From assembly GCF_050320075.1 (NCBI RefSeq), contig NZ_CP190018.1: 64,000 bases of DNA. One strand, written 5' to 3'. The notes beneath the pieces are model-generated. The model was not told the DNA's origin. It saw only the letters and a program-made list of their open reading frames with translations, and ran no database searches. Positions 35,233-44,885 of the stretch are shown here, in pieces. Numbering within the stretch: position 1 is the first letter of the stretch; every line of letters begins with the position of its first letter. Both the position numbers and the translations under genes were made by a program. Source of the stretch: Escherichia coli. Lineage in GTDB: Bacteria > Pseudomonadota > Gammaproteobacteria > Enterobacterales > Enterobacteriaceae.

Positions 35233-36585
35233 TTATGGTTTGAGTTTATACTTCTGACCATTAATGATTTTTTTGATTAACTCGAATGCAGCGGGGGAAT
35301 ATTTATGAACACCTTCCTTCCCCGTTTTCACTAGCACATGATAGTTATTATCTGAGGATTTAATATTAAAACCAGTTTCCTTGTGTATTCTTTCTAATAC
35401 TTTATGGACGTAATGCCAAGATCCCATATCAAGTAATTTTGCAAGTTCAGATATGGTGTAGGGATAGCTTGCGTTAAGTGCTTGCCCATTATTTAACTCT
35501 GCAATTCCATAAAGTTTCGCTAACACGTTATCTTGCTCAGCAATGTTCTTAAGCATTTCAAAATCATATGGAAGCTCTTGTTTTACAAGAGATTGAGAGG
35601 CAAATGTATAGGTTCTGGCTAATAGCGCCCTGACTAATTTTGGGTTAACACTGATTTCTGGCGTATTTGACGATAGGGCATCATAAATCCAACCGAAATC
35701 ATTGGCATAGATCACTTTGATTCGGATGCTTTTATTTTCACCAACACCAATCAAAATCTCTTTCTGGTGTGAACCTGTACCTTCACATTCTGGACTAAAG
35801 GAAACCAAATAAATATTCGGAATCAAAGCGTTATTTGGCGCAATTATCTCATCAATATCAGACAGGATGGCTTTAATATTCTCATCATTAATACTATAGC
35901 CAATGAAGAACAACGGATGCTCGACGAAATATGTTAATAGTTTTGCACTGATATACTTTTTACGCTTATAAAACTCAACATAGTCTTCATTTGTTATAAT
36001 GATGCTTTCTGGTTCTTTACTACTGCCGTGAATCTTCATGATTTCACCGTATGTAGTATAGTTAACAGTCACAACATTATGGCCAACTATCGGTTGGTAG
36101 TTATCAAATATCTTTTCAAGCAGATCGTCATAGTTTGTTGTAATAATGGCATGGGGCCTTACTTTTTTTAACTTTTCAATTTCTTCAGTGTACTCCATTG
36201 CTGAAAAATCAACCGAGTCTGAAAGGTTATTCAACAATGTTGCAATCTCATGCTTGATATATATATCTTTAGAGCTTTTTCCATTGAAATACTGTTCAGG
36301 ATAACGAGATGTCCCCACATCCCAAGCCCACTCAGCGTATGACTCAGAAAAATCACTTGCTATCATTGGTTTATTGTCATTTCTTGTTTGACTGTAGTAA
36401 CCATACGGGCGAGTGATTAATGGGCAAGTTTCAGCGAGATACTTTAACAGGTTTTCCCAATCAGGAGCTTTCAAGTAGCGTTGAGATACCCCTGCACCCA
36501 TAAAGAGAATTGGCTGTACCTGTAAACCTTCAAGACATGATTTGATATCTTCAATTATTTCTGTCTGATATTCAGAGAAGTCCAT
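35233..36585 (-). CDS. SIR2-like (SIR2_2 / ThsA-DSR-type) domain protein with uncharacterised C-terminal domain; candidate NAD+-depleting anti-phage effector
   Basis: 450 aa; SIR2_2 hallmarks PILFMGAGVS (res 25-34), IITTNYDDLLE (res 147-157, putative catalytic Asn151), KIHGS (His186), EHPLFFIGYSINDE (res 222-235); C-terminal about 190 aa with no recognised family; gene is markedly AT-rich. Confidence 0.75.
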   Translation of the reverse strand: MDFSEYQTEIIEDIKSCLEGLQVQPILFMGAGVSQRYLKAPDWENLLKYLAETCPLITRPYGYYSQTRNDNKPMIASDFSESYAEWAWDVGTSRYPEQYFNGKSSKDIYIKHEIATLLNNLSDSVDFSAMEYTEEIEKLKKVRPHAIITTNYDDLLEKIFDNYQPIVGHNVVTVNYTTYGEIMKIHGSSKEPESIIITNEDYVEFYKRKKYISAKLLTYFVEHPLFFIGYSINDENIKAILSDIDEIIAPNNALIPNIYLVSFSPECEGTGSHQKEILIGVGENKSIRIKVIYANDFGWIYDALSSNTPEISVNPKLVRALLARTYTFASQSLVKQELPYDFEMLKNIAEQDNVLAKLYGIAELNNGQALNASYPYTISELAKLLDMGSWHYVHKVLERIHKETGFNIKSSDNNYHVLVKTGKEGVHKYSPAAFELIKKIINGQKYKLKP

Positions 36586-36799: not shown

Positions 36800-37835
36800 T
36801 CACCTTTTACCAAAGATGGCCTCAGAGCTTCCCTGAAGCTTTATCATGGTTTCAAGTAGGTCATCTTCGTTCAGTGAGCGCTGAGATTTGTTGATGCTAG
36901 GCGCGTGCCGTCTGCGGGAAGGCTCATCACCAGAACAAGGTAACGATAGTGAGCGATTATTGTCCCGTTTTCTCTGGACCTGACGGGCAACATCCAACAC
37001 ATGGCCAAGTCTCTTGTTATCTACAATGGCGACGGGCTCAACCTCAGAAAGCCGGTCATAGGTGGAGTAGGGTAGCAGCACGCCATTTAGTCGCAGCTCC
37101 TTATGTCCGTCAGGATAATGCCAGACATCAATATACTTGCCGATGGCTCTTCGACTGTACTCGTTGTCCTCAATCAGATAGAGCATTTTATCGTATTGTA
37201 CAGTCAGATTTTTTGATACCCGGCGAGGCTCTCGCCAGGTAAATTCTGCATCAAGGTCATCGTCTAATGCCAGCGGCCGGTACGCGTTAAAATCATGCAA
37301 GGGTTCTTTGGCAAAGCGCCGGTTATAATCCGCCATGTATTCTTCTGCAAATGCATTGGCCGCTTCTATTGTACAGATCCCCTTAAGCCTGAGCTCCTTA
37401 ACGAGTCGGTCCTGAAGTGTCAAATGAGCACGTTCAACGCGGCCTTTTGCCTGGCTGGTTTCAGCACACAAAGGAGTAATATTAAGGCAGCGCATGGCCC
37501 TGGCAAACTGGGTATCGCCGAGACCGGTGGTGGCGTGCTTATTATTGACTCTGAATACGCTGGCTTTATCGCTGTAGAGGATCATCGGTTTACCGTATTC
37601 AGTGGTGGTCGCAGCCATCAATTTGTATCAGCTCGCCAGTACAAGGACGCCGGTAACGAGGCTGATGAATTTTCGGTGCGCGTTGTCTGCGGGGGATCCA
37701 GAGTCCCGCGTTTATCATGAGACGTCGGATGGTTTCCTTTCCAAGGACCAGACCGTGAACTTCCTCCAGCTTTTCCCGCGCCAGCGTGGGGCCAAAATCA
37801 CGGTAGTGCTCCCGGATTATACTGAGTGCCTCCAA
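36800..37835 (-). mobile_element. Remnant IS element: DDE (integrase-core) transposase gene disrupted by a frameshift
   Basis: Two overlapping minus-strand ORFs (37599..37835 N-terminal HTH part ending …IQIDGCDHH; 36800..37621 catalytic part …ILYSDKASVF…AETSQAKGRVERAHLTLQ); family not confidently assigned (IS481/ISNCY-like); IS ends not identified. Confidence 0.6.
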
Positions 37836-38198
37836 TGAGCCACAAATAGAACATTAGCATTGAGCCTCTATAATTTTGGTGCGCATAATGTATATTATGT
37901 TAAATGTGGTGGGTTTGTTCTTAAGTTCATGTGTTCCGCTCTTTCAGTAGCTTAACTGATGAATCAGTCAGCAGCTCTTGCCGTGCAAGCTACGCGGCGG
38001 TTCGTACCAGATTGGCCACCTCCATCTCCTGGTTCGCTTTCCCCTCCCCCCGGTAAACCTCACCCAACGTTAATTAATGATGTCAGTATGTGGGCGCTAT
38101 CCTTGTATGTAAAATCCACTGACGATTACGCCCATCTGTGAAAAAAAACTCACAATGCCATTCGATGCATCTCCATACTGAACGAGGCGTTATCGTCT

Positions 38199-39098
38199 TT
38201 ATCGCCCCGTAGTGGATATCAGAAAATCAATCAGGGCCTTCACTCTTTTCGTTTTACCCGCGTTTTTGGGGTAATAGAGATACACTGGCGGGTAGGTTTT
38301 CCAGTATCTCTCCATCACCGGAATAAAGCGCTCCCTGTCCGGCTGTAACTGCCAGACAGGCTCAAACAAGCGCCCAATTCCCAGCCCGTTACGGATCCCG
38401 TCTGCCATAACGTCAATATCGTTGCTGATTAACTGCCCCGGCATCTCAACGGTCAACTGCTCACCGCGATCGTTCAGGAGCAGCGGAAGGATGCGGTTGT
38501 TGGTGATAAAACGGTAACCAATCAGCTGGTGATGACAGAGATCTGCCGGCACTTCAGGCGTTCCATGTCGGGAGAGATACGCTGAGGATGCATATAATCC
38601 TTCACGAAACGGTTTCATTAACGGTCGGGCCACCACCCCTCCCTCAAGAATATCGCCAAAACGGATCCCCAGATCAAAACGCTCTTTGATGATATTCACG
38701 GTACCGTCGTAGACCGAAATTTCTAACTGTATACCCGGATATTGCTGACAGAATTCTGCCATCGCAGGCTTAAGAATTAACAGGTAGGCAAAACGCGAGA
38801 GCGTAATTCGCACCATCCCAGAGGGCTCCTGATGCTGGTCGCGAATGCTTTCAAGTGAGTTTTCCAGCGACTCCACCGCCGCAGCGGTCTGTTCCAGCAA
38901 TAATTGACCGGTTTCCGTCAGCTCTATACGGCGGGTCGTACGCACAAAAAGCGGATGGCCGATATACTCTTCCAGCAGCTTTAGTGCATTGCTGACGGAG
39001 GGAGGCGTAATTTCCAGTTTCCTTGCGGCTGCCGAAATATTGCCCTCCCGCGCAATGCTCTGGAAGATGCGAATCTGGTTATAAAGAGCGTTATTCAT
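38199..39098 (-). CDS. LysR-family transcriptional regulator
   Basis: 299-aa protein; N-terminal HTH (IFQSIAREGNISAAARKLEITPPSVSNALKLLE); divergent from the oxidoreductase cluster. Confidence 0.85.
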   Translation of the reverse strand: MNNALYNQIRIFQSIAREGNISAAARKLEITPPSVSNALKLLEEYIGHPLFVRTTRRIELTETGQLLLEQTAAAVESLENSLESIRDQHQEPSGMVRITLSRFAYLLILKPAMAEFCQQYPGIQLEISVYDGTVNIIKERFDLGIRFGDILEGGVVARPLMKPFREGLYASSAYLSRHGTPEVPADLCHHQLIGYRFITNNRILPLLLNDRGEQLTVEMPGQLISNDIDVMADGIRNGLGIGRLFEPVWQLQPDRERFIPVMERYWKTYPPVYLYYPKNAGKTKRVKALIDFLISTTGR

Positions 39099-39233
39099 AA
39101 TGTTTTCCTAAGCAATTCTCGCCTGATTATTAAGTACAGTCTAAAAATGCTTAAGTCAATGACCCTCTAATCTTCCTGAAATACGCCTCTTATACTTTAG
39201 TCTCTTTCTACTACGACCTGAGTTCAGGAGACT

Positions 39234-39545
39234 ATGATGCGAATTTTATGTCTGGATATCCCTGCCCCTGGAGCATCGCTGGAGAAATATGCTCCGCACC
39301 TCAACGCTGAAGCGCTGCACGCCTGGGGATTGTATAAATCAGGCTTCATCCGCGACATCTACTTCCGTCAGGACAGACCTGGCGTCGCTATTTTTCTTGA
39401 ATGTGACTCTGTCGATGAAGCGATGAACGTTATGGCCGAATTCCCGTTGGCAAAAGCAGGCTTACTAAGCTTCGAGTGTATACCGCTTGGCTCCTTTATT
39501 AACTGGGAAAATCTCTTCGCCGATGAATTTAAAAATAAAGAGTGA
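39234..39545 (+). CDS. Muconolactone isomerase-like small protein (Dabb/YciI-like fold)
   Basis: 103-aa protein with pattern similar to CatC-type muconolactone delta-isomerases; family assignment tentative. Confidence 0.45.
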   Translation: MMRILCLDIPAPGASLEKYAPHLNAEALHAWGLYKSGFIRDIYFRQDRPGVAIFLECDSVDEAMNVMAEFPLAKAGLLSFECIPLGSFINWENLFADEFKNKE

Positions 39546-39553
39546 GGACCGAT

Positions 39554-40243
39554 ATGAAACCTGCATATAAACCAGTGCTATGTGTCGTTTCCAGCCATCC
39601 GATTAAAGGCGCATCCGGTGTACCAACCGGTTTTTTCCTGGCCGAGCTGACTCATCCGCTGAAAGTACTGGAAGATGCCGGAATAAAAACAACAATAGCC
39701 AGTATTCGCGGGGGGCAGCCACCGGTGGATGGATTTGACCTCAGCGACCCTGTTAACGCCTGGTACTGGAACGAAACCGATTTTCAGCAGCGCCTGGCAA
39801 CAACACCTGCGTTATCCGAGCTGAAAGGTGCCGATTACAGCGCAGTTTTCTTTGCAGGTGGTCATGGGACCATGTGGGATTTCCGTGATAATCAGGATGC
39901 CCAGCGTATTATCCGCGAAGTGTATGAAAGTGATGGGATTGTCTCAGCCGTCTGCCACGGGCCTGCGGCATTGGTTGACGCAAAACTCAGTAGCGGCGAA
40001 TACCTGATAAAAGGGAAAAATGTGGCGGCCTTTACCAACAAGGAAGAGGAAGAAGTTCACACAACAGATGTGGTTCCCTTCCTGCTTGAAACCGCACTTC
40101 GCGAGCATGGTGCGCTTTATCATGAAGCTCCAAACTGGTCTGAAAACGTGGTTACCGACGATCGCCTTATCACGGGGCAGAATCCCGCTTCAGCACATGG
40201 GGTTGGTGTGGCGCTGTTAAATGCACTCCGCCGGACAGCTTAA
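39554..40243 (+). CDS. DJ-1/PfpI-family (class I glutamine amidotransferase-like) protein
   Basis: About 229-aa protein with nucleophile-elbow context (SAVCHGPAAL); ORF track 39542..40243, ATG 39554 more likely. Confidence 0.7.
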   Translation: MKPAYKPVLCVVSSHPIKGASGVPTGFFLAELTHPLKVLEDAGIKTTIASIRGGQPPVDGFDLSDPVNAWYWNETDFQQRLATTPALSELKGADYSAVFFAGGHGTMWDFRDNQDAQRIIREVYESDGIVSAVCHGPAALVDAKLSSGEYLIKGKNVAAFTNKEEEEVHTTDVVPFLLETALREHGALYHEAPNWSENVVTDDRLITGQNPASAHGVGVALLNALRRTA

Positions 40244-40316
40244 TTAATTCATCGTTACTCACCTTACTTGGCCGGTTTAAGTCAGCCACGATCCGGCCTT
40301 TTTTCAGGAGCTGAAT

Positions 40317-41264
40317 ATGAAAACACTACCTCCAGTCGCACTAGGTACATGGTCCTGGGGCACAGGCTTTGCCGGCGGCGACACCGTCTTTGGTAATCAT
40401 CTTTCTGATACTCAGATGGCAGAAGTGTTCACTGCGGCCATGAGTAAGGGCCTCAATCTCTGGGATACCGCAGCAGTATATGGTATGGGGAGTTCCGAGA
40501 CTGCGCTGGGAGCATTAGTCCGTCAGTTTCCCCGCGAGAACATAATTTTATCCACCAAATTCACGCCGCAGATTGCGGACAAGCAGTCTGCGCAGCCTGT
40601 CAGCGATATGCTTGAGGCCAGCCTTGGGCGCCTGGGCGTGGACGCGATTGATATCTACTGGATCCATAATCCCCTCGACGTCGAAAAATGGACACCAGGA
40701 CTGATCCCACTTTTACAAAGCGGTAAGGTAAAACGCGTAGGTGTTTCCAACCACAATCTGGCACAAATCAGACGCGCCAATGAAATCCTTAACGCTTCCG
40801 GTTATTCCCTCAGTGCAGTACAAAATCACTACAGCCTGCTCTATCGCGCTTCTGAAGAGGCCGGGATCCTTGATTATTGCCGACAAAATAACATCACGTT
40901 CTTTGCTTACATGGTCCTGGAGCAAGGCGCGCTCAGTGGTCGTTATGATTCAAATCATCCCATGCCTGCCGGGAGTGGCCGGGCCGAAAGTTATAACGCA
41001 GTACTGCCGCAGATAGAAAGACTAACCGCCGCCATGAAAAAAATGGGAGCCGAAAGGAATGCCAGCGTGGCACAGATAGCCATCGCATGGGCTATTGCGA
41101 AAGGTACCCTTCCCCTCGTTGGTGCGACTAAAGTCCATCACGTTCTGGACGCCGCCTGCGCTTCAGACATCCAGTTACGCGATGAGGAAATCATCCTGCT
41201 GGAACAACTCGCCGCAGAGACCAGAGTGGATACACGAGGCGCCTGGGAAAAACCGATGGTGTAA
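40317..41264 (+). CDS. Aldo/keto reductase family oxidoreductase
   Basis: 315-aa protein with AKR features (LWDTAAVYG, VGVSNH). Confidence 0.8.
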   Translation: MKTLPPVALGTWSWGTGFAGGDTVFGNHLSDTQMAEVFTAAMSKGLNLWDTAAVYGMGSSETALGALVRQFPRENIILSTKFTPQIADKQSAQPVSDMLEASLGRLGVDAIDIYWIHNPLDVEKWTPGLIPLLQSGKVKRVGVSNHNLAQIRRANEILNASGYSLSAVQNHYSLLYRASEEAGILDYCRQNNITFFAYMVLEQGALSGRYDSNHPMPAGSGRAESYNAVLPQIERLTAAMKKMGAERNASVAQIAIAWAIAKGTLPLVGATKVHHVLDAACASDIQLRDEEIILLEQLAAETRVDTRGAWEKPMV

Positions 41265-41366
41265 AGCCCGTCCGGAACAGACTGTCATGAATGACACACA
41301 CGAACGGGCTGTTCCGGGTGATTCTAATCTGTATCACTTTTACTGCTTTGTATGAATGGTGAGAAT

Positions 41367-42044
41367 ATGAAAATCATTTGCCTCGAAGAACATTATCTCG
41401 ACAGCGAGTTAGGGCGAGCGTGTATGCCTGTTGCGCTTGAGCAGGCACCTTTCCTTGGCGACAGGGGGAAAACCGTCGCTGATGGTCATAATCCTGACCG
41501 ACTCCCTGCTTTCCCGCTTTAATAAACTGAATGTGCCACTCTATCTTCATCCCGGGTTACCGCTTAAAAGCGTACAGCAGGCCTACTTCACGGGCTTCAG
41601 CGCAGAGGTCAACGCCAGGCTTTCTATGTTTGCCTGGGGCTGGCATCACGAAGCGGGGATCCATTTGTTGCGGCTGATGTTATCGGGCGCATTTGATAAA
41701 TATCCCAACCTGCAGGTAATCAGTGGCCACTGGGGGGAGATGTTACCCTTCTGGCTCCAGCGTCTTGATGACAGCCTACCACTGGCTGCAACGGGTCTGT
41801 CACGCACGCTAACGAGAACCTTCCAGGAACACGTTTACGTTACCCCGTCATATGCTAACACTGCCGCACTTCCAGTTTATCTACGCGTTAATGGGTGCTG
41901 AAAGGATCCTGTTCTCCGTCGGTTATCCCTATCAGACCCCTGGACGGTGTAAAAACCTTTATAGACAGTCTGCCCGTCAACAAGGCTGAAAAAGAGGCCA
42001 TCGCGTTTCGCAATGCAGAACGTTTACTGGGCATCACGGTTTAG
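41367..42044 (+). pseudogene. Amidohydrolase-2 (ACMSD-like metal-dependent hydrolase) gene remnant with frameshifts
   Basis: N-terminal MKIICLEEHYLD… in one frame, central part (ORF 41431..41901) in another, C-terminal …FSVGYPYQ…NAERLLGITV in a third; total length too short for the family. Confidence 0.55.
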
Positions 42045-42194
42045 TTCACCGTTTCATGATGACTGAGCACATTGTGATCAGCCGACAATTATTAGTTTTT
42101 GCCTAAAAGTGAATGAGCCTTTACTGCTCTAAAAAAATAATGTTGTCACTCTATACTGGATTTAATATTCACCAAAGATGTTTAACTGATTGAA

Positions 42195-42767
42195 ATGAAA
42201 AATATCCTTGTTATTTCAGGTCATCCTGAGCTTACCCATTCCGTCGCCAATGCCACTATTCTTGATGAAGTGGAGACCGCCCTTCCCGATGTTGAGATTC
42301 GTCGTCTGGACAGGCTCTATCCGGATGGCAAATTCAACATCGCGGCGGAGCAGAAAAGCCTGCTCAGGGCCGATGTGATTGTCTGGCAGTTCCCTTTTTC
42401 CTGGTATGGGCTGCCAGGATTAATGAAAAAATGGCTGGACGAGGTCTTTGTTCACGGCTTCGCGCATGGCTCAACGGCGAAACTGGGCGGTAAAAAGCTG
42501 ATCCTCTCCTTTACAACGGGAGCGCCAGAGGAGCTCTATACCGTCGACAGTTTCTTTGGCCATACCATTGAAGAGTATCTTATTCCGTTCGAAACCACGG
42601 CAAGGCTGTGCAATCTTGAGCTGCTGGCGCCGGTTTATACCTGCGGTATCAGCTATGCCGACCGGGATGCCGACAAAATCGCGCAGCAAAAAACGCTTGC
42701 CCGGGAACACGCTTCAAGGCTTGTCGAACTGCTCAATTCCGTCGTGAATAATCCAGAGGGAGAATAA
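42195..42767 (+). CDS. Flavodoxin-like NAD(P)H:quinone oxidoreductase (KefF/MdaB/general stress protein 14-like)
   Basis: 190-aa protein; N-terminal MKNILVISGHP flavodoxin-like-fold signature. Confidence 0.7.
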   Translation: MKNILVISGHPELTHSVANATILDEVETALPDVEIRRLDRLYPDGKFNIAAEQKSLLRADVIVWQFPFSWYGLPGLMKKWLDEVFVHGFAHGSTAKLGGKKLILSFTTGAPEELYTVDSFFGHTIEEYLIPFETTARLCNLELLAPVYTCGISYADRDADKIAQQKTLAREHASRLVELLNSVVNNPEGE

Positions 42768-42769
42768 CA

Positions 42770-43789
42770 ATGCAGTATACCCGGCTCGGTAAAAGTGACT
42801 TACTTGTTTCCCGCATCTGCATGGGATGCATGGGGTTTGGCGATCCGTCGACGGGTCAGCATAGCTGGACGCTGGACGAAACAGCAAGCCGCGACATCAT
42901 TCGCTATGGCCTTGAAAAGGGCATCAACTTTTACGATACCGCTATAGCCTACCAGAATGGCTCCAGTGAGCGATACGTTGGCCGGGCATTACGGGAGATG
43001 GCGAAACGCGATGATATCGTCCTGGCCACCAAGTTTCTGCCGCGAACCCCCGCACAAATTGCCGGAGGGATCAGCGGAAAAGAGGCAATCGCTCAATCCC
43101 TTGACCAGAGCCTGAAGAATCTGGGGATGGACTATATCGACCTCTACATCTACCACATCTGGGATTACAACACGCCCATTATCGACGTGCTTGAAGCGTT
43201 ACATACCGCTGTTACTGCTGGCAAAGTACGATCTGTTGGTATTTCAAACTGCTATGCCTGGCAGCTGGCGAAGGCGAACGCCCTTGCTGAACGCGAAGGG
43301 CTGATGCCCTTTGTTTCCGTACAGAGCCACTACAATCTAATTATGCGCGAAGATGAACGGGAGCTCTTCGGCCTGTGCACTGAGGATAATATCGCAATGA
43401 CCCCCTATAGCGCGCTGGCCAGCGGCCGCCTCTCTCGTAAAGAAGGCTATACACGGCGAGCCACAGAGGATGACTATGCGCGTGGAAAATATGACAGCAC
43501 GGCTGAACAGGATCGCAGCATTATTGAGCGTGTAGCCGAACTGGCCGAACGCCATCTGGTGTCAATGACGGAAATATCTCTCGCTTGGCTGCTGACAAAA
43601 GTCACATCACCTGTCGTAGGGGCTACAAAAAAAGCTCATGTCGATGGCGCGGTAAACGCAGTAAATCTTCAACTAAGTCCGGAGGAAATTCAGTTTCTGG
43701 AAGAAACCTACCAGCCGCATGTTCTGACGGGGGTCATGGCGCAAAATACGCCGCAAACGAAAGATGTTAAGCAGGTCTGGATGCGATAG
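42770..43789 (+). CDS. Aldo/keto reductase family oxidoreductase
   Basis: 339-aa AKR (GINFYDTAIAYQNG, VGISN); start immediately follows the upstream stop. Confidence 0.8.
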   Translation: MQYTRLGKSDLLVSRICMGCMGFGDPSTGQHSWTLDETASRDIIRYGLEKGINFYDTAIAYQNGSSERYVGRALREMAKRDDIVLATKFLPRTPAQIAGGISGKEAIAQSLDQSLKNLGMDYIDLYIYHIWDYNTPIIDVLEALHTAVTAGKVRSVGISNCYAWQLAKANALAEREGLMPFVSVQSHYNLIMREDERELFGLCTEDNIAMTPYSALASGRLSRKEGYTRRATEDDYARGKYDSTAEQDRSIIERVAELAERHLVSMTEISLAWLLTKVTSPVVGATKKAHVDGAVNAVNLQLSPEEIQFLEETYQPHVLTGVMAQNTPQTKDVKQVWMR

Positions 43790-43904
43790 CCCTTATTCAC
43801 TTTTCCTCCTCTCGTCTTTGAGAGCGCCAGTAGCGGTCGGTTACGTTCTTACCAGCACCAGTTGATCGAACGTCTTAAACAGTAACGTCAGTAAAAAGAT
43901 CATC

Positions 43905-44630
43905 GTGAAAAAGACTTTTATGCTTTTAATTTGCATGCAAATAAGCAGCCCTGTCTTTGCAACAAAACCGGACGCGCCGAATAAGCCGGAGATGAATATC
44001 TTCGAGCTCGGCATCAGACCCGATCGGGACAACGACTTTGCAGACGTGGCCAGACAGACGATTTCCGCTTCGGTTGATCATGAAGCAGGTACACTGGCGA
44101 TGTATGCCCTGCAACGCAGCGACAATTCAGGTCAGGCATTCATGTTCGAACTCTATGAAAATGAGCGTGCTTATCGCAAACATCTCAATGCCGCCCCATA
44201 CAAAGCATTCGCTGCTCGTGCACCTGACATTATTGACAGGAAGAAGAAAATTACCCTGGAGCCACAGTTTCTGGGCGACAAACACATCATACCGAATGAA
44301 CGAACTATCAATAATCTGGTGATCGTCGAAGTAAAGCCTGAATTTCAGAGCGAATTTAGAAACATCGTCCTTCCTGAAATGGTCGAGTCGCTCAAAGTAG
44401 AGAAAGGCGTGTTAGCCATGTATGCCGGTACAGATTCAGAGACTCCAAAACGCTGGTATTTCTATGAGATTTACGCCAGTGAGGAGGATTATCAACTGCA
44501 CCGACAAACGCTGCACTTCCTGGATTACCTCAGGCAAACGGCGCATATGAGCGCCAGGAAGGACGCAATCCCGGTAAAACCGGTATTTCTTCGTAACAAA
44601 GGCGGAATCAAACAGGAGCCGCAACGTTGA
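43905..44630 (+). CDS. Putative secreted protein with tandem ABM (antibiotic-biosynthesis-monooxygenase-like) domains
   Basis: 241-aa ORF with N-terminal hydrophobic signal-like segment and two ABM-like halves (AMYALQR…FELYENERAY; AMYAGT…YEIYASEEDY); start uncertain. Confidence 0.5.
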   Translation: MKKTFMLLICMQISSPVFATKPDAPNKPEMNIFELGIRPDRDNDFADVARQTISASVDHEAGTLAMYALQRSDNSGQAFMFELYENERAYRKHLNAAPYKAFAARAPDIIDRKKKITLEPQFLGDKHIIPNERTINNLVIVEVKPEFQSEFRNIVLPEMVESLKVEKGVLAMYAGTDSETPKRWYFYEIYASEEDYQLHRQTLHFLDYLRQTAHMSARKDAIPVKPVFLRNKGGIKQEPQR

Positions 44631-44645
44631 CCAGTAAGGATTAAC

Positions 44646-44885
44646 ATGAAAAGCGTACTTGCAGCAGCGGCTATGTCGCTTGTTATTTCTGATTTTGCTA
44701 ATGCTGAGGAAACAAGAGGTAAAGCTATGATGAAAATAGAACCGTCAGCGATTTCGGAAGCTGATATTCGTTCCGTCTCACCGGCTCTCGCGCGCTTTGG
44801 TCGCGAAGCTATTACTGAAGATCTGTGGACACGCGACGCCCTCTCACCGAGGGATCGTAGAGTAGTTAAACTTACTGTTATTTAA
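44646..44885 (+). pseudogene. Truncated carboxymuconolactone decarboxylase (AhpD-like) family fragment
   Basis: 79-aa ORF with CMD-like N-terminal motif (…ALSPRDRRVV…) ending abruptly; sits at the island/fimbrial junction. Confidence 0.4.

Follow-up and report, generated by a model that had tools for sequence, protein, structure and literature searches.

Remnant of an Amidohydrolase_2 gene inside a partly eroded, reductase-dominated cluster of Escherichia coli

According to our analysis, positions 41367-42044 of the window, by which we mean the whole 64,000-nucleotide stretch of Escherichia coli DNA that was analysed (contig NZ_CP190018.1), are almost certainly a genuine pseudogene, inherited across E. 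coli lineages, of a gene that had 344 codons and encoded an Amidohydrolase_2 enzyme of the ACMSD/LigW-type decarboxylase subfamily. The remnant has stayed where the gene originally lay, within a cluster that is horizontally mobile. The original prediction, made from the sequence of the window, had placed the N-terminal, central and C-terminal parts of such an enzyme in three different frames and had suspected multiple frameshifts and an internal deletion; comparison with intact orthologues in other Enterobacterales, which it had recommended, was carried out and proved decisive for the conclusion that the gene is dead.

Both the list of open reading frames and direct translation place one Amidohydrolase_2 protein in this interval in four pieces, in frames 0, 1, 2 and 0. 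The three frames of the original prediction are thus borne out, the C-terminal part being itself split in two:

41367-41501, plus strand: segment 1, frame 0, codons 1-45, MKIICLEEHY...GHNPDR
41502-41850, plus strand: segment 2, frame 1, codons about 164-280, (D)SLLSRFNKLNVPLYLHPG...SGHWGE...HVYVTPS
41851-41939, plus strand: segment 3, frame 2, codons about 282-310, MLTLPHFQFIYALMGAERILFSVGYPYQT
41940-42044, plus strand: segment 4, frame 0, codons 311-344 and the original stop, LDGVKTFIDSL...LLGITV then stop, in full LDGVKTFIDSLPVNKAEKEAIAFRNAERLLGITV then stop

Segment 1 holds the EEH metal-ligand motif, whose His codon CAT lies at 41391-41393, and its reading frame continues out of frame to a premature stop at 41520-41522; two further premature stops stand at 41899-41901 and 41987-41989. 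Segment 2 carries the LYLHPG and SGHWGE motifs and corresponds, in a tblastn comparison, to residues 169-285 of the 349-aa form of the protein at 97% identity. Taken together, 226 codons are left in the four frame segments, where the whole domain would occupy some 330-350 residues of a single ORF. The central ORF by itself is recognised by the Pfam profile PF04909 (Amidohydro_2) at 35.7 bits, the cut-off being 26.4, and the frame-corrected concatenation reaches 65 bits, its match spanning 121-289 of the 289 profile positions and leaving those before about 121 uncovered; for an intact orthologue the score is 109 bits, with positions 42-289 covered. The metal-ligand set of the window copy is incomplete, EEH and LYLHP being kept while DYPY now reads GYPY. 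A consensus scan of 39050-45100 for promoters and terminators gave sites no more frequent than in shuffled sequence and no convincing internal promoter or terminator near the remnant, and an Rfam scan of 37000-46000 at E <= 0.1 gave no match.

Intact forms of this gene are found in other bacteria. A protein search with the stitched remnant returned full-length proteins of 344/349 aa at 91-98% identity, including those of Serratia ficaria and Pantoea stewartii, and the intact 344-aa gene sits between an aldo/keto reductase gene (AKR315) and a gene for a 190-aa Flavodoxin_2 protein in contigs L005-L013 and in the Enterobacter mori plasmid L018. The Logan contigs L005-L007 hold intact syntenic orthologues of 344 aa in the same gene order, and a scan of one genome per species gave intact syntenic copies in Rahnella rivi, Candidatus Pantoea deserta, Candidatus Pantoea gossypiicola, Rouxiella aceris, Serratia plymuthica and Serratia inhibens. 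The whole module is also carried on Enterobacter mori plasmids of 213-214 kb, where a 1035-bp gene is annotated as 'amidohydrolase family protein'. Examples of intact orthologues are WP_303570777.1 from the E. mori plasmid and the Rahnella rivi gene at L008 8001-9047. The EEH, LYLHP, GHWGE and DYPY motifs are all found in the intact proteins, and comparison of intact genes with each other gives pairwise dN/dS values of 0.10-0.15, a mark of purifying selection. The remnant is closest to the intact 344-codon gene of L007, with 98-99% DNA identity and 13 mismatches in 674 bases, and is about 95% identical to that of L005; judged by sequence, this likeness is homology, and chance is excluded.

Base-level alignment with the intact orthologues of L005, L006 and L007 resolves the damage in the window into three indels, listed here together with one substitution at a motif residue:

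41501/41502 junction, plus strand: 356-bp deletion, which maps exactly to L005 8151-8506
41850/41851, plus strand: loss of GG (2 bp), the second frameshift
41937-41940, plus strand: extra C in a C-run (CCCC in place of CCC), the third frameshift
41921-41923, plus strand: GGT codon (Gly), which is GAT in every intact gene and there encodes the Asp of the DYPY motif

The internal deletion that had been thought probable is therefore real, and the multiple frameshifts arise from these three indels. The missing 356 bp equal 118 codons and 2 nt, so that codons 46-163 are gone together with 2 nt of codon 164, and because 356 is not a multiple of three the deletion itself causes the first frameshift. 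A GA microhomology at 41499-41502 leaves its junction ambiguous by 2 nt, and its end points in the intact gene lie at the imperfect direct repeats ATCCTGACCGA and ATCCTGACTATGA. The GG pair is present in strain AR_0067 and in all intact orthologues and is missing from the window and from H1, H11 and H23. In a HMMER alignment the Asp of DYPY falls on Asp314 of LigW, which we take, following the LigW literature, to be a metal ligand and a catalytic residue.

A survey of 5426 complete E. coli genomes, in about 470 of which the locus was matched, bears directly on the suggestion that the frameshifts are errors of sequencing or assembly and that the real gene is continuous. One of the lesions is indeed the gain of one base in a short homopolymer, where CCC has become CCCC, a typical site of error on some platforms. 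However, the exact 91-mer that holds both the extra C and the Gly codon was found in 129 independent complete genomes and the exact 75-mer lacking GG in 312, and base-calling cannot produce a deletion of 356 bp. Moreover, none of the 470 matches reaches 80% coverage of the intact gene, and the maximum is 68%. We consider an artefact of this kind hardly credible: with identical lesions in 129 to 470 independent complete genomes, the continuous ORF on resequencing that the original prediction had named as its counter-case is effectively excluded. The 356-bp deletion is in every E. coli allele inspected and, since even the best match stops at 68% coverage of the intact gene, it appears to be universal in this species. 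The 1-kb stretch 41200-42200 of the window, which includes the remnant, is shared at 100% identity by many complete E. coli genomes and is present in 472 of the 5426.

The lesions beyond the shared deletion differ between strains. Among five aligned alleles all have the 356-bp deletion, and those with the extra C also lack GG. Alleles of the AR_0067 type have the large deletion as their only lesion and keep an ORF of 187 aa, those of the CFSAN061770 type combine the deletion with the loss of GG, and the window and CFSAN061763 add to these the extra C and the Gly codon. The order of lesions is not strictly nested or tree-like, because the window keeps the ancestral His9 codon CAT while alleles with fewer indels have AAT (Asn) at this place; this implies recombination among alleles or homoplasy as the probable background of the series.

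It may also be asked whether the enzyme is toggled by programmed recoding or phase variation, a thought invited by the gain of one C in a short C-run. Restoration of the frame would nevertheless leave 118 codons missing, the run has just 3-4 bases, the GG loss lies outside any repeat, and no 'on' or full-length allele occurs among the 470 E. coli genomes; the chance that such a switch operates here is vanishingly small.

Several other copies deserve a record of their own. In strain S1-ZIM-01-A the remnant has a further 26-bp insertion (L002 6681-6706), an exact reverse complement of the 26 bp just upstream with a 10-bp spacer between them, which identifies it as a mutation of the quasi-palindrome or template-switch type; in the PGAP annotation this copy is marked as a pseudogene containing an internal stop. 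A 200-aa protein from ENA metagenome assemblies (P0008) has the N-terminal and central parts in one ORF, and it looks as if a second deletion had joined the out-of-frame read-through (..DRLP) to the central SAEVN.., restoring one ORF. An N-terminally truncated copy of 161 aa (P0037) is annotated in Enterobacter cloacae. An E. coli-type deleted allele is also present on a 3.6-kb contig (L017, JAIJJM010000311.1) of a metagenome-assembled genome labelled Collinsella sp. (Actinomycetota); its flanking genes are 98-99% identical to those of E. coli, and the contig most likely comes from E. coli and was mis-binned.

PGAP annotates in most genomes a 51-aa 'hypothetical protein', which is segment 1, and an 'amidohydrolase family protein' of 139-187 aa. 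In RefSeq the pieces (for example L001 6168-6702) appear as the 'hypothetical protein' WP_023063624.1 or WP_001322415.1 and as the 'amidohydrolase family protein' entries WP_001327999.1, WP_001322416.1, WP_001322417.1 and WP_023153757.1. Given these CDS calls, the fragments could still be translated as far as the sequence goes, and one may suppose that they are truncated proteins with a retained or new role, namely the central ORF of 139/156 aa in the window and that of 187 aa in AR_0067-type alleles. The region is kept in all of the roughly 470 genomes that bear the locus, the ratio of substitutions is about 0.3 and thus below the neutral value of 1, and in the metagenome variant P0008 the fusion of the N-terminal and central parts has produced a 200-aa ORF. 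Against this, about one third of the protein is gone, the missing part lying wholly between the first metal-ligand motif and the second, and the fragment has no start codon or ribosome-binding context from the original gene; in nested subsets of strains the frameshifts that came later make it shorter still, and ligand residues are changed (H9N, D305G). The low number of substitutions is explained by a young lesion, whose flanks are 99-100% identical to intact alleles. A role for the truncated products is in our judgement very unlikely, and we keep to the reading of the locus as a pseudogene.

The substitution ratio itself comes from few events. On a codon alignment built by hand from the mapped lesions, E. 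coli copies differ from L007 by 7-18 mismatches in about 675 nt, and the E. coli-specific derived changes amount to about 6 non-synonymous (H9N, W33R, E273Q, D305G, G341C and A344V) against 5-6 synonymous, roughly a dN/dS of 0.3. This value lies above the 0.10-0.15 of the intact genes, a rise that, at such small counts, may reflect a weak relaxation of constraint. H9N and D305G fall on metal-ligand positions that are invariant in all intact orthologues compared. A multi-species codon alignment made with MAFFT, Serratia included, misplaced the E. coli remnant across the deletion and created about 50 spurious non-synonymous differences; its E. coli rows were discarded as invalid.

The identity of the region to its relatives is mosaic. 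From about 40655 to 41800, a block made up of the 3' half of AKR315 together with most of the remnant, the window shares 99-100% identity with L005 and L007, which are clusters of the Enterobacter type, whereas the rest of the island shows 87-95% identity to them. This suggests that the block is a recombination tract which would span the deletion, and because the flanks are so much closer to the intact alleles than the rest of the cluster, the 356-bp lesion should be young relative to the divergence of the island. One could go further and read the tract, of 1.1-1.4 kb, as recent gene flow between an Enterobacter megaplasmid and the E. coli island, coupled with expression of the 139-187-aa fragment in a non-enzymatic or partner-binding role; to this combination we would give a very small chance.

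What the ancestral enzyme did can be approached through its relatives. The best solved one is PDB 3nur, an uncharacterised amidohydrolase that matches residues 7-348 end to end (E 1e-68) with the four motifs conserved; it has no assigned function and hence gives no help in naming a substrate, and a literature search for 3NUR as an amidohydrolase found no paper. After it come LigW and the 2,3-dihydroxybenzoate, gamma-resorcylate and salicylate decarboxylases (E 1e-45 to 1e-32). The intact protein P0001 matches the LigW/LigW2 5-carboxyvanillate decarboxylases (4inf/4qrn, 4icm, 4qs5) over residues 61-343 with E 3e-45, and His188, the HMGE motif and Asp314 of LigW align with LYLHP, GHxGE and DYPY of the intact orthologue; the two belong to a common Amidohydrolase_2 fold family (PF04909) and have only moderate sequence similarity. 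For gamma-resorcylate decarboxylase (2dvt, 3s4t) and 2,3-dihydroxybenzoate decarboxylase (6m53, 7wjr) the values are E 1e-41 to 1e-44. The N-terminal 'LEEH' motif corresponds to the Glu8/His10 ligands of gamma-RSD. These decarboxylases are normally met in contexts of aromatic-acid degradation, whereas the cluster described here is dominated by reductases.

ACMSD (2-amino-3-carboxymuconate-6-semialdehyde decarboxylase; 2wm1, 4ign, 2hbv), after which the gene had at first been named ACMSD-like, belongs to the same superfamily and subfamily, with E 1e-15 to 1e-6, and is clearly more distant from the intact orthologue than the hydroxybenzoate decarboxylases are. The name therefore holds at the level of the subfamily and not for ACMSD itself, which is distant (E 1e-15 at best), the nearest characterised group being the LigW-type decarboxylases (E 1e-45 to 1e-41). 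NCBIfam has no equivalog for the amidohydrolase or for the 103-aa protein of the cluster, and its matches to the neighbouring genes are far below the cut-offs, so that no specific function can be transferred. From the similarities listed above, the ancestral activity was most likely a metal-dependent non-oxidative decarboxylation of a phenolic acid.

The remnant is surrounded by the following genes and gene remains:

38199-39098, minus strand: LysR-family regulator, 299 aa (Pfam HTH_1 and LysR_substrate), aligned over 1-299 with its orthologues, intact
39234-39545, plus strand: conserved hypothetical protein of about 101-103 aa, the first cluster gene, syntenic in all orthologous clusters
39542-40243, plus strand: DJ-1/PfpI protein (type 1 glutamine amidotransferase-like, PF01965), full-length alignment, intact
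40317-41264, plus strand: aldo/keto reductase AKR315 (PF00248, 194 bits), directly upstream of the remnant, aligned over 1-315 of 315, intact
42195-42767, plus strand: Flavodoxin_2 / KefF-like NAD(P)H oxidoreductase, 190 aa (PF02525), aligned over 1-190 of 190, intact
42770-43789, plus strand: second aldo/keto reductase AKR339 (PF00248, 236 bits), aligned over 1-339 of 339, intact
43803-43885, plus strand: scar of a 952-bp deletion and a 3' stub of about 26 codons, PPLVFESASSGRLRSYQHQLIERLKQ then stop, of a second Flavodoxin_2 gene (201 aa)
43905-44630, plus strand: ABM-domain 'putative quinol monooxygenase' (PF03992 in two stretches), aligned over 1-212 of 212 with L005, apparently intact
44646-44885, plus strand: CMD/AhpD-like gene (carboxymuconolactone-decarboxylase family), truncated at codon 79 of 267

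The regulator is divergent and stands 135 bp from the first cluster gene, an arrangement kept in all orthologous clusters. That first gene has no Pfam or NCBIfam match, and for the Flavodoxin_2 gene at 42195-42767 the KefF-like match of NCBIfam is below the cut-off. The two aldo/keto reductases and the flavodoxin-like protein next to the remnant align end to end with their orthologues, in agreement with the original prediction, which had described the flanking reductase genes as intact. In its full form the module reads LysR, the unknown protein, DJ-1, AKR, Amidohydro_2, Flavodoxin_2, AKR, DUF1330, Flavodoxin_2, ABM and CMD.

The prediction had further seen in the cluster a former module of aromatic or lactone catabolism, now partly eroded. 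The erosion goes beyond what was claimed, since the cluster has also lost its DUF1330 gene and its second Flavodoxin_2 gene, and CMD is truncated. The 952-bp deletion, which is common to all E. coli copies, took the DUF1330 gene and the first 170 or so codons of the second Flavodoxin_2 gene, whose 3' stub is left at about 43805-43885, and the segment it removed is absent from the 5426 E. coli genomes, bar one unrelated partial match. CMD was cut by a 2417-bp deletion with its junction at 44861-44866, which removed a yneL-like HTH pseudogene and fimA as well; the E. coli contigs L002, L003 and L004 have an intact CMD gene and still contain the yneL-like fragment and fimA. In AR_0067, the strain with the least damaged remnant, the LysR regulator is frameshifted (L003 2999-3899). 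These two further deletions, and the frameshift of the regulator in another strain, point to a general decay of the cluster.

The catabolic label fared less well. Such a pathway would be defined by enzymes such as a ring-cleavage dioxygenase, a lactonase or a cycloisomerase, or by a complete funnelling route; because no ring-cleavage enzyme or lactonase family was detected among the genes of the full module, aromatic or lactone catabolism is not demonstrated. Detoxification of phenolics, quinones or carbonyls would fit the gene content, with its quinone-reductase-like flavodoxin folds, at least as well, and a role in handling such compounds would also suit the hosts in which the intact copies occur, those of plants and soil.

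The cluster varies in other strains and lineages too. CFSAN061763 (L001) has the amidohydrolase allele of the window, but its AKR339 is cut at residue 326 and its ABM and CMD genes are missing. The Logan contig L007 (ERR4045343; 3179-4127, 4214-5263, 8077-8801) has a full-length amidohydrolase ORF, but with Asn for His in LYLHP, and its AKR315 and ABM genes are each in two pieces; in another lineage, then, decay of the module follows different routes. Downstream of the cluster, the fimbrial usher gene of the window (45805-47505) stops at 566 aa compared with 883 aa in CFSAN061763, with the break at about 47484, where an IS1 transposase ORF (47499-48002, minus strand) is found; a FimH-like gene follows at 48522-49436. 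Upstream lie hipA (33654-35033), a gene with a SIR2_2 domain on the minus strand (35233-36585) and, at 36800-37621, a transposase-like remnant, and in other strains hipBA abuts the cluster directly, without the SIR2 gene. A literature search on the hipA/yneL/fimbrial/aldo-keto reductase neighbourhood gave no paper on the locus, and the papers returned appear unrelated.

Decay of the gene began when 356 bp were deleted between direct repeats that are short and imperfect (ATCCTGAC..GA), an event that took about one third of the protein and may have come about by slipped-strand or microhomology-mediated misalignment. The loss of GG came next, in a subset of E. coli, and the allele of the window has in addition the extra C and the change of Asp to Gly at a metal-ligand position. 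The later lesions probably piled up because selection on the gene had ceased, and the remnant would yield no functional enzyme. The ancestral enzyme may have served as a non-oxidative (de)carboxylase acting on a phenolic acid, a partner of the neighbouring reductases for plant-type phenolics, quinones or carbonyls, and this role was presumably dispensable in the gut-adapted E. coli lineages that have the island.

The main value of these observations lies in the correction of annotation and in a small worked example of stepwise gene decay. The RefSeq fragments in most of the roughly 470 genomes should be merged and flagged as one pseudogene, and the series of alleles (356-bp deletion, GG loss, extra C) could be used as a lineage marker. 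The intact module of plant-associated Enterobacterales and of the Enterobacter mori plasmid is uncharacterised and could merit enzymology.

Set beside LigW, the window copy, with codons 46-163 gone, two more frameshifts and Gly at the equivalent of Asp314, is a relic and no active member of the family. Set beside ordinary pseudogenes of accessory islands, it shows no qualitative difference: the mechanisms are the same, namely deletion between short repeats, small indels, IS insertion and fixation in a lineage, and its neighbourhood, where CMD is truncated, fimA has been lost and IS1 cuts the usher gene, is like that of such islands. In E. coli K-12, the genes around hipBA and the ydeQRST fimbrial operon are, as we take them, examples of the same kind of decay, and the remnant described here is likewise an ordinary and biologically unsurprising pseudogene in a partly eroded accessory cluster.
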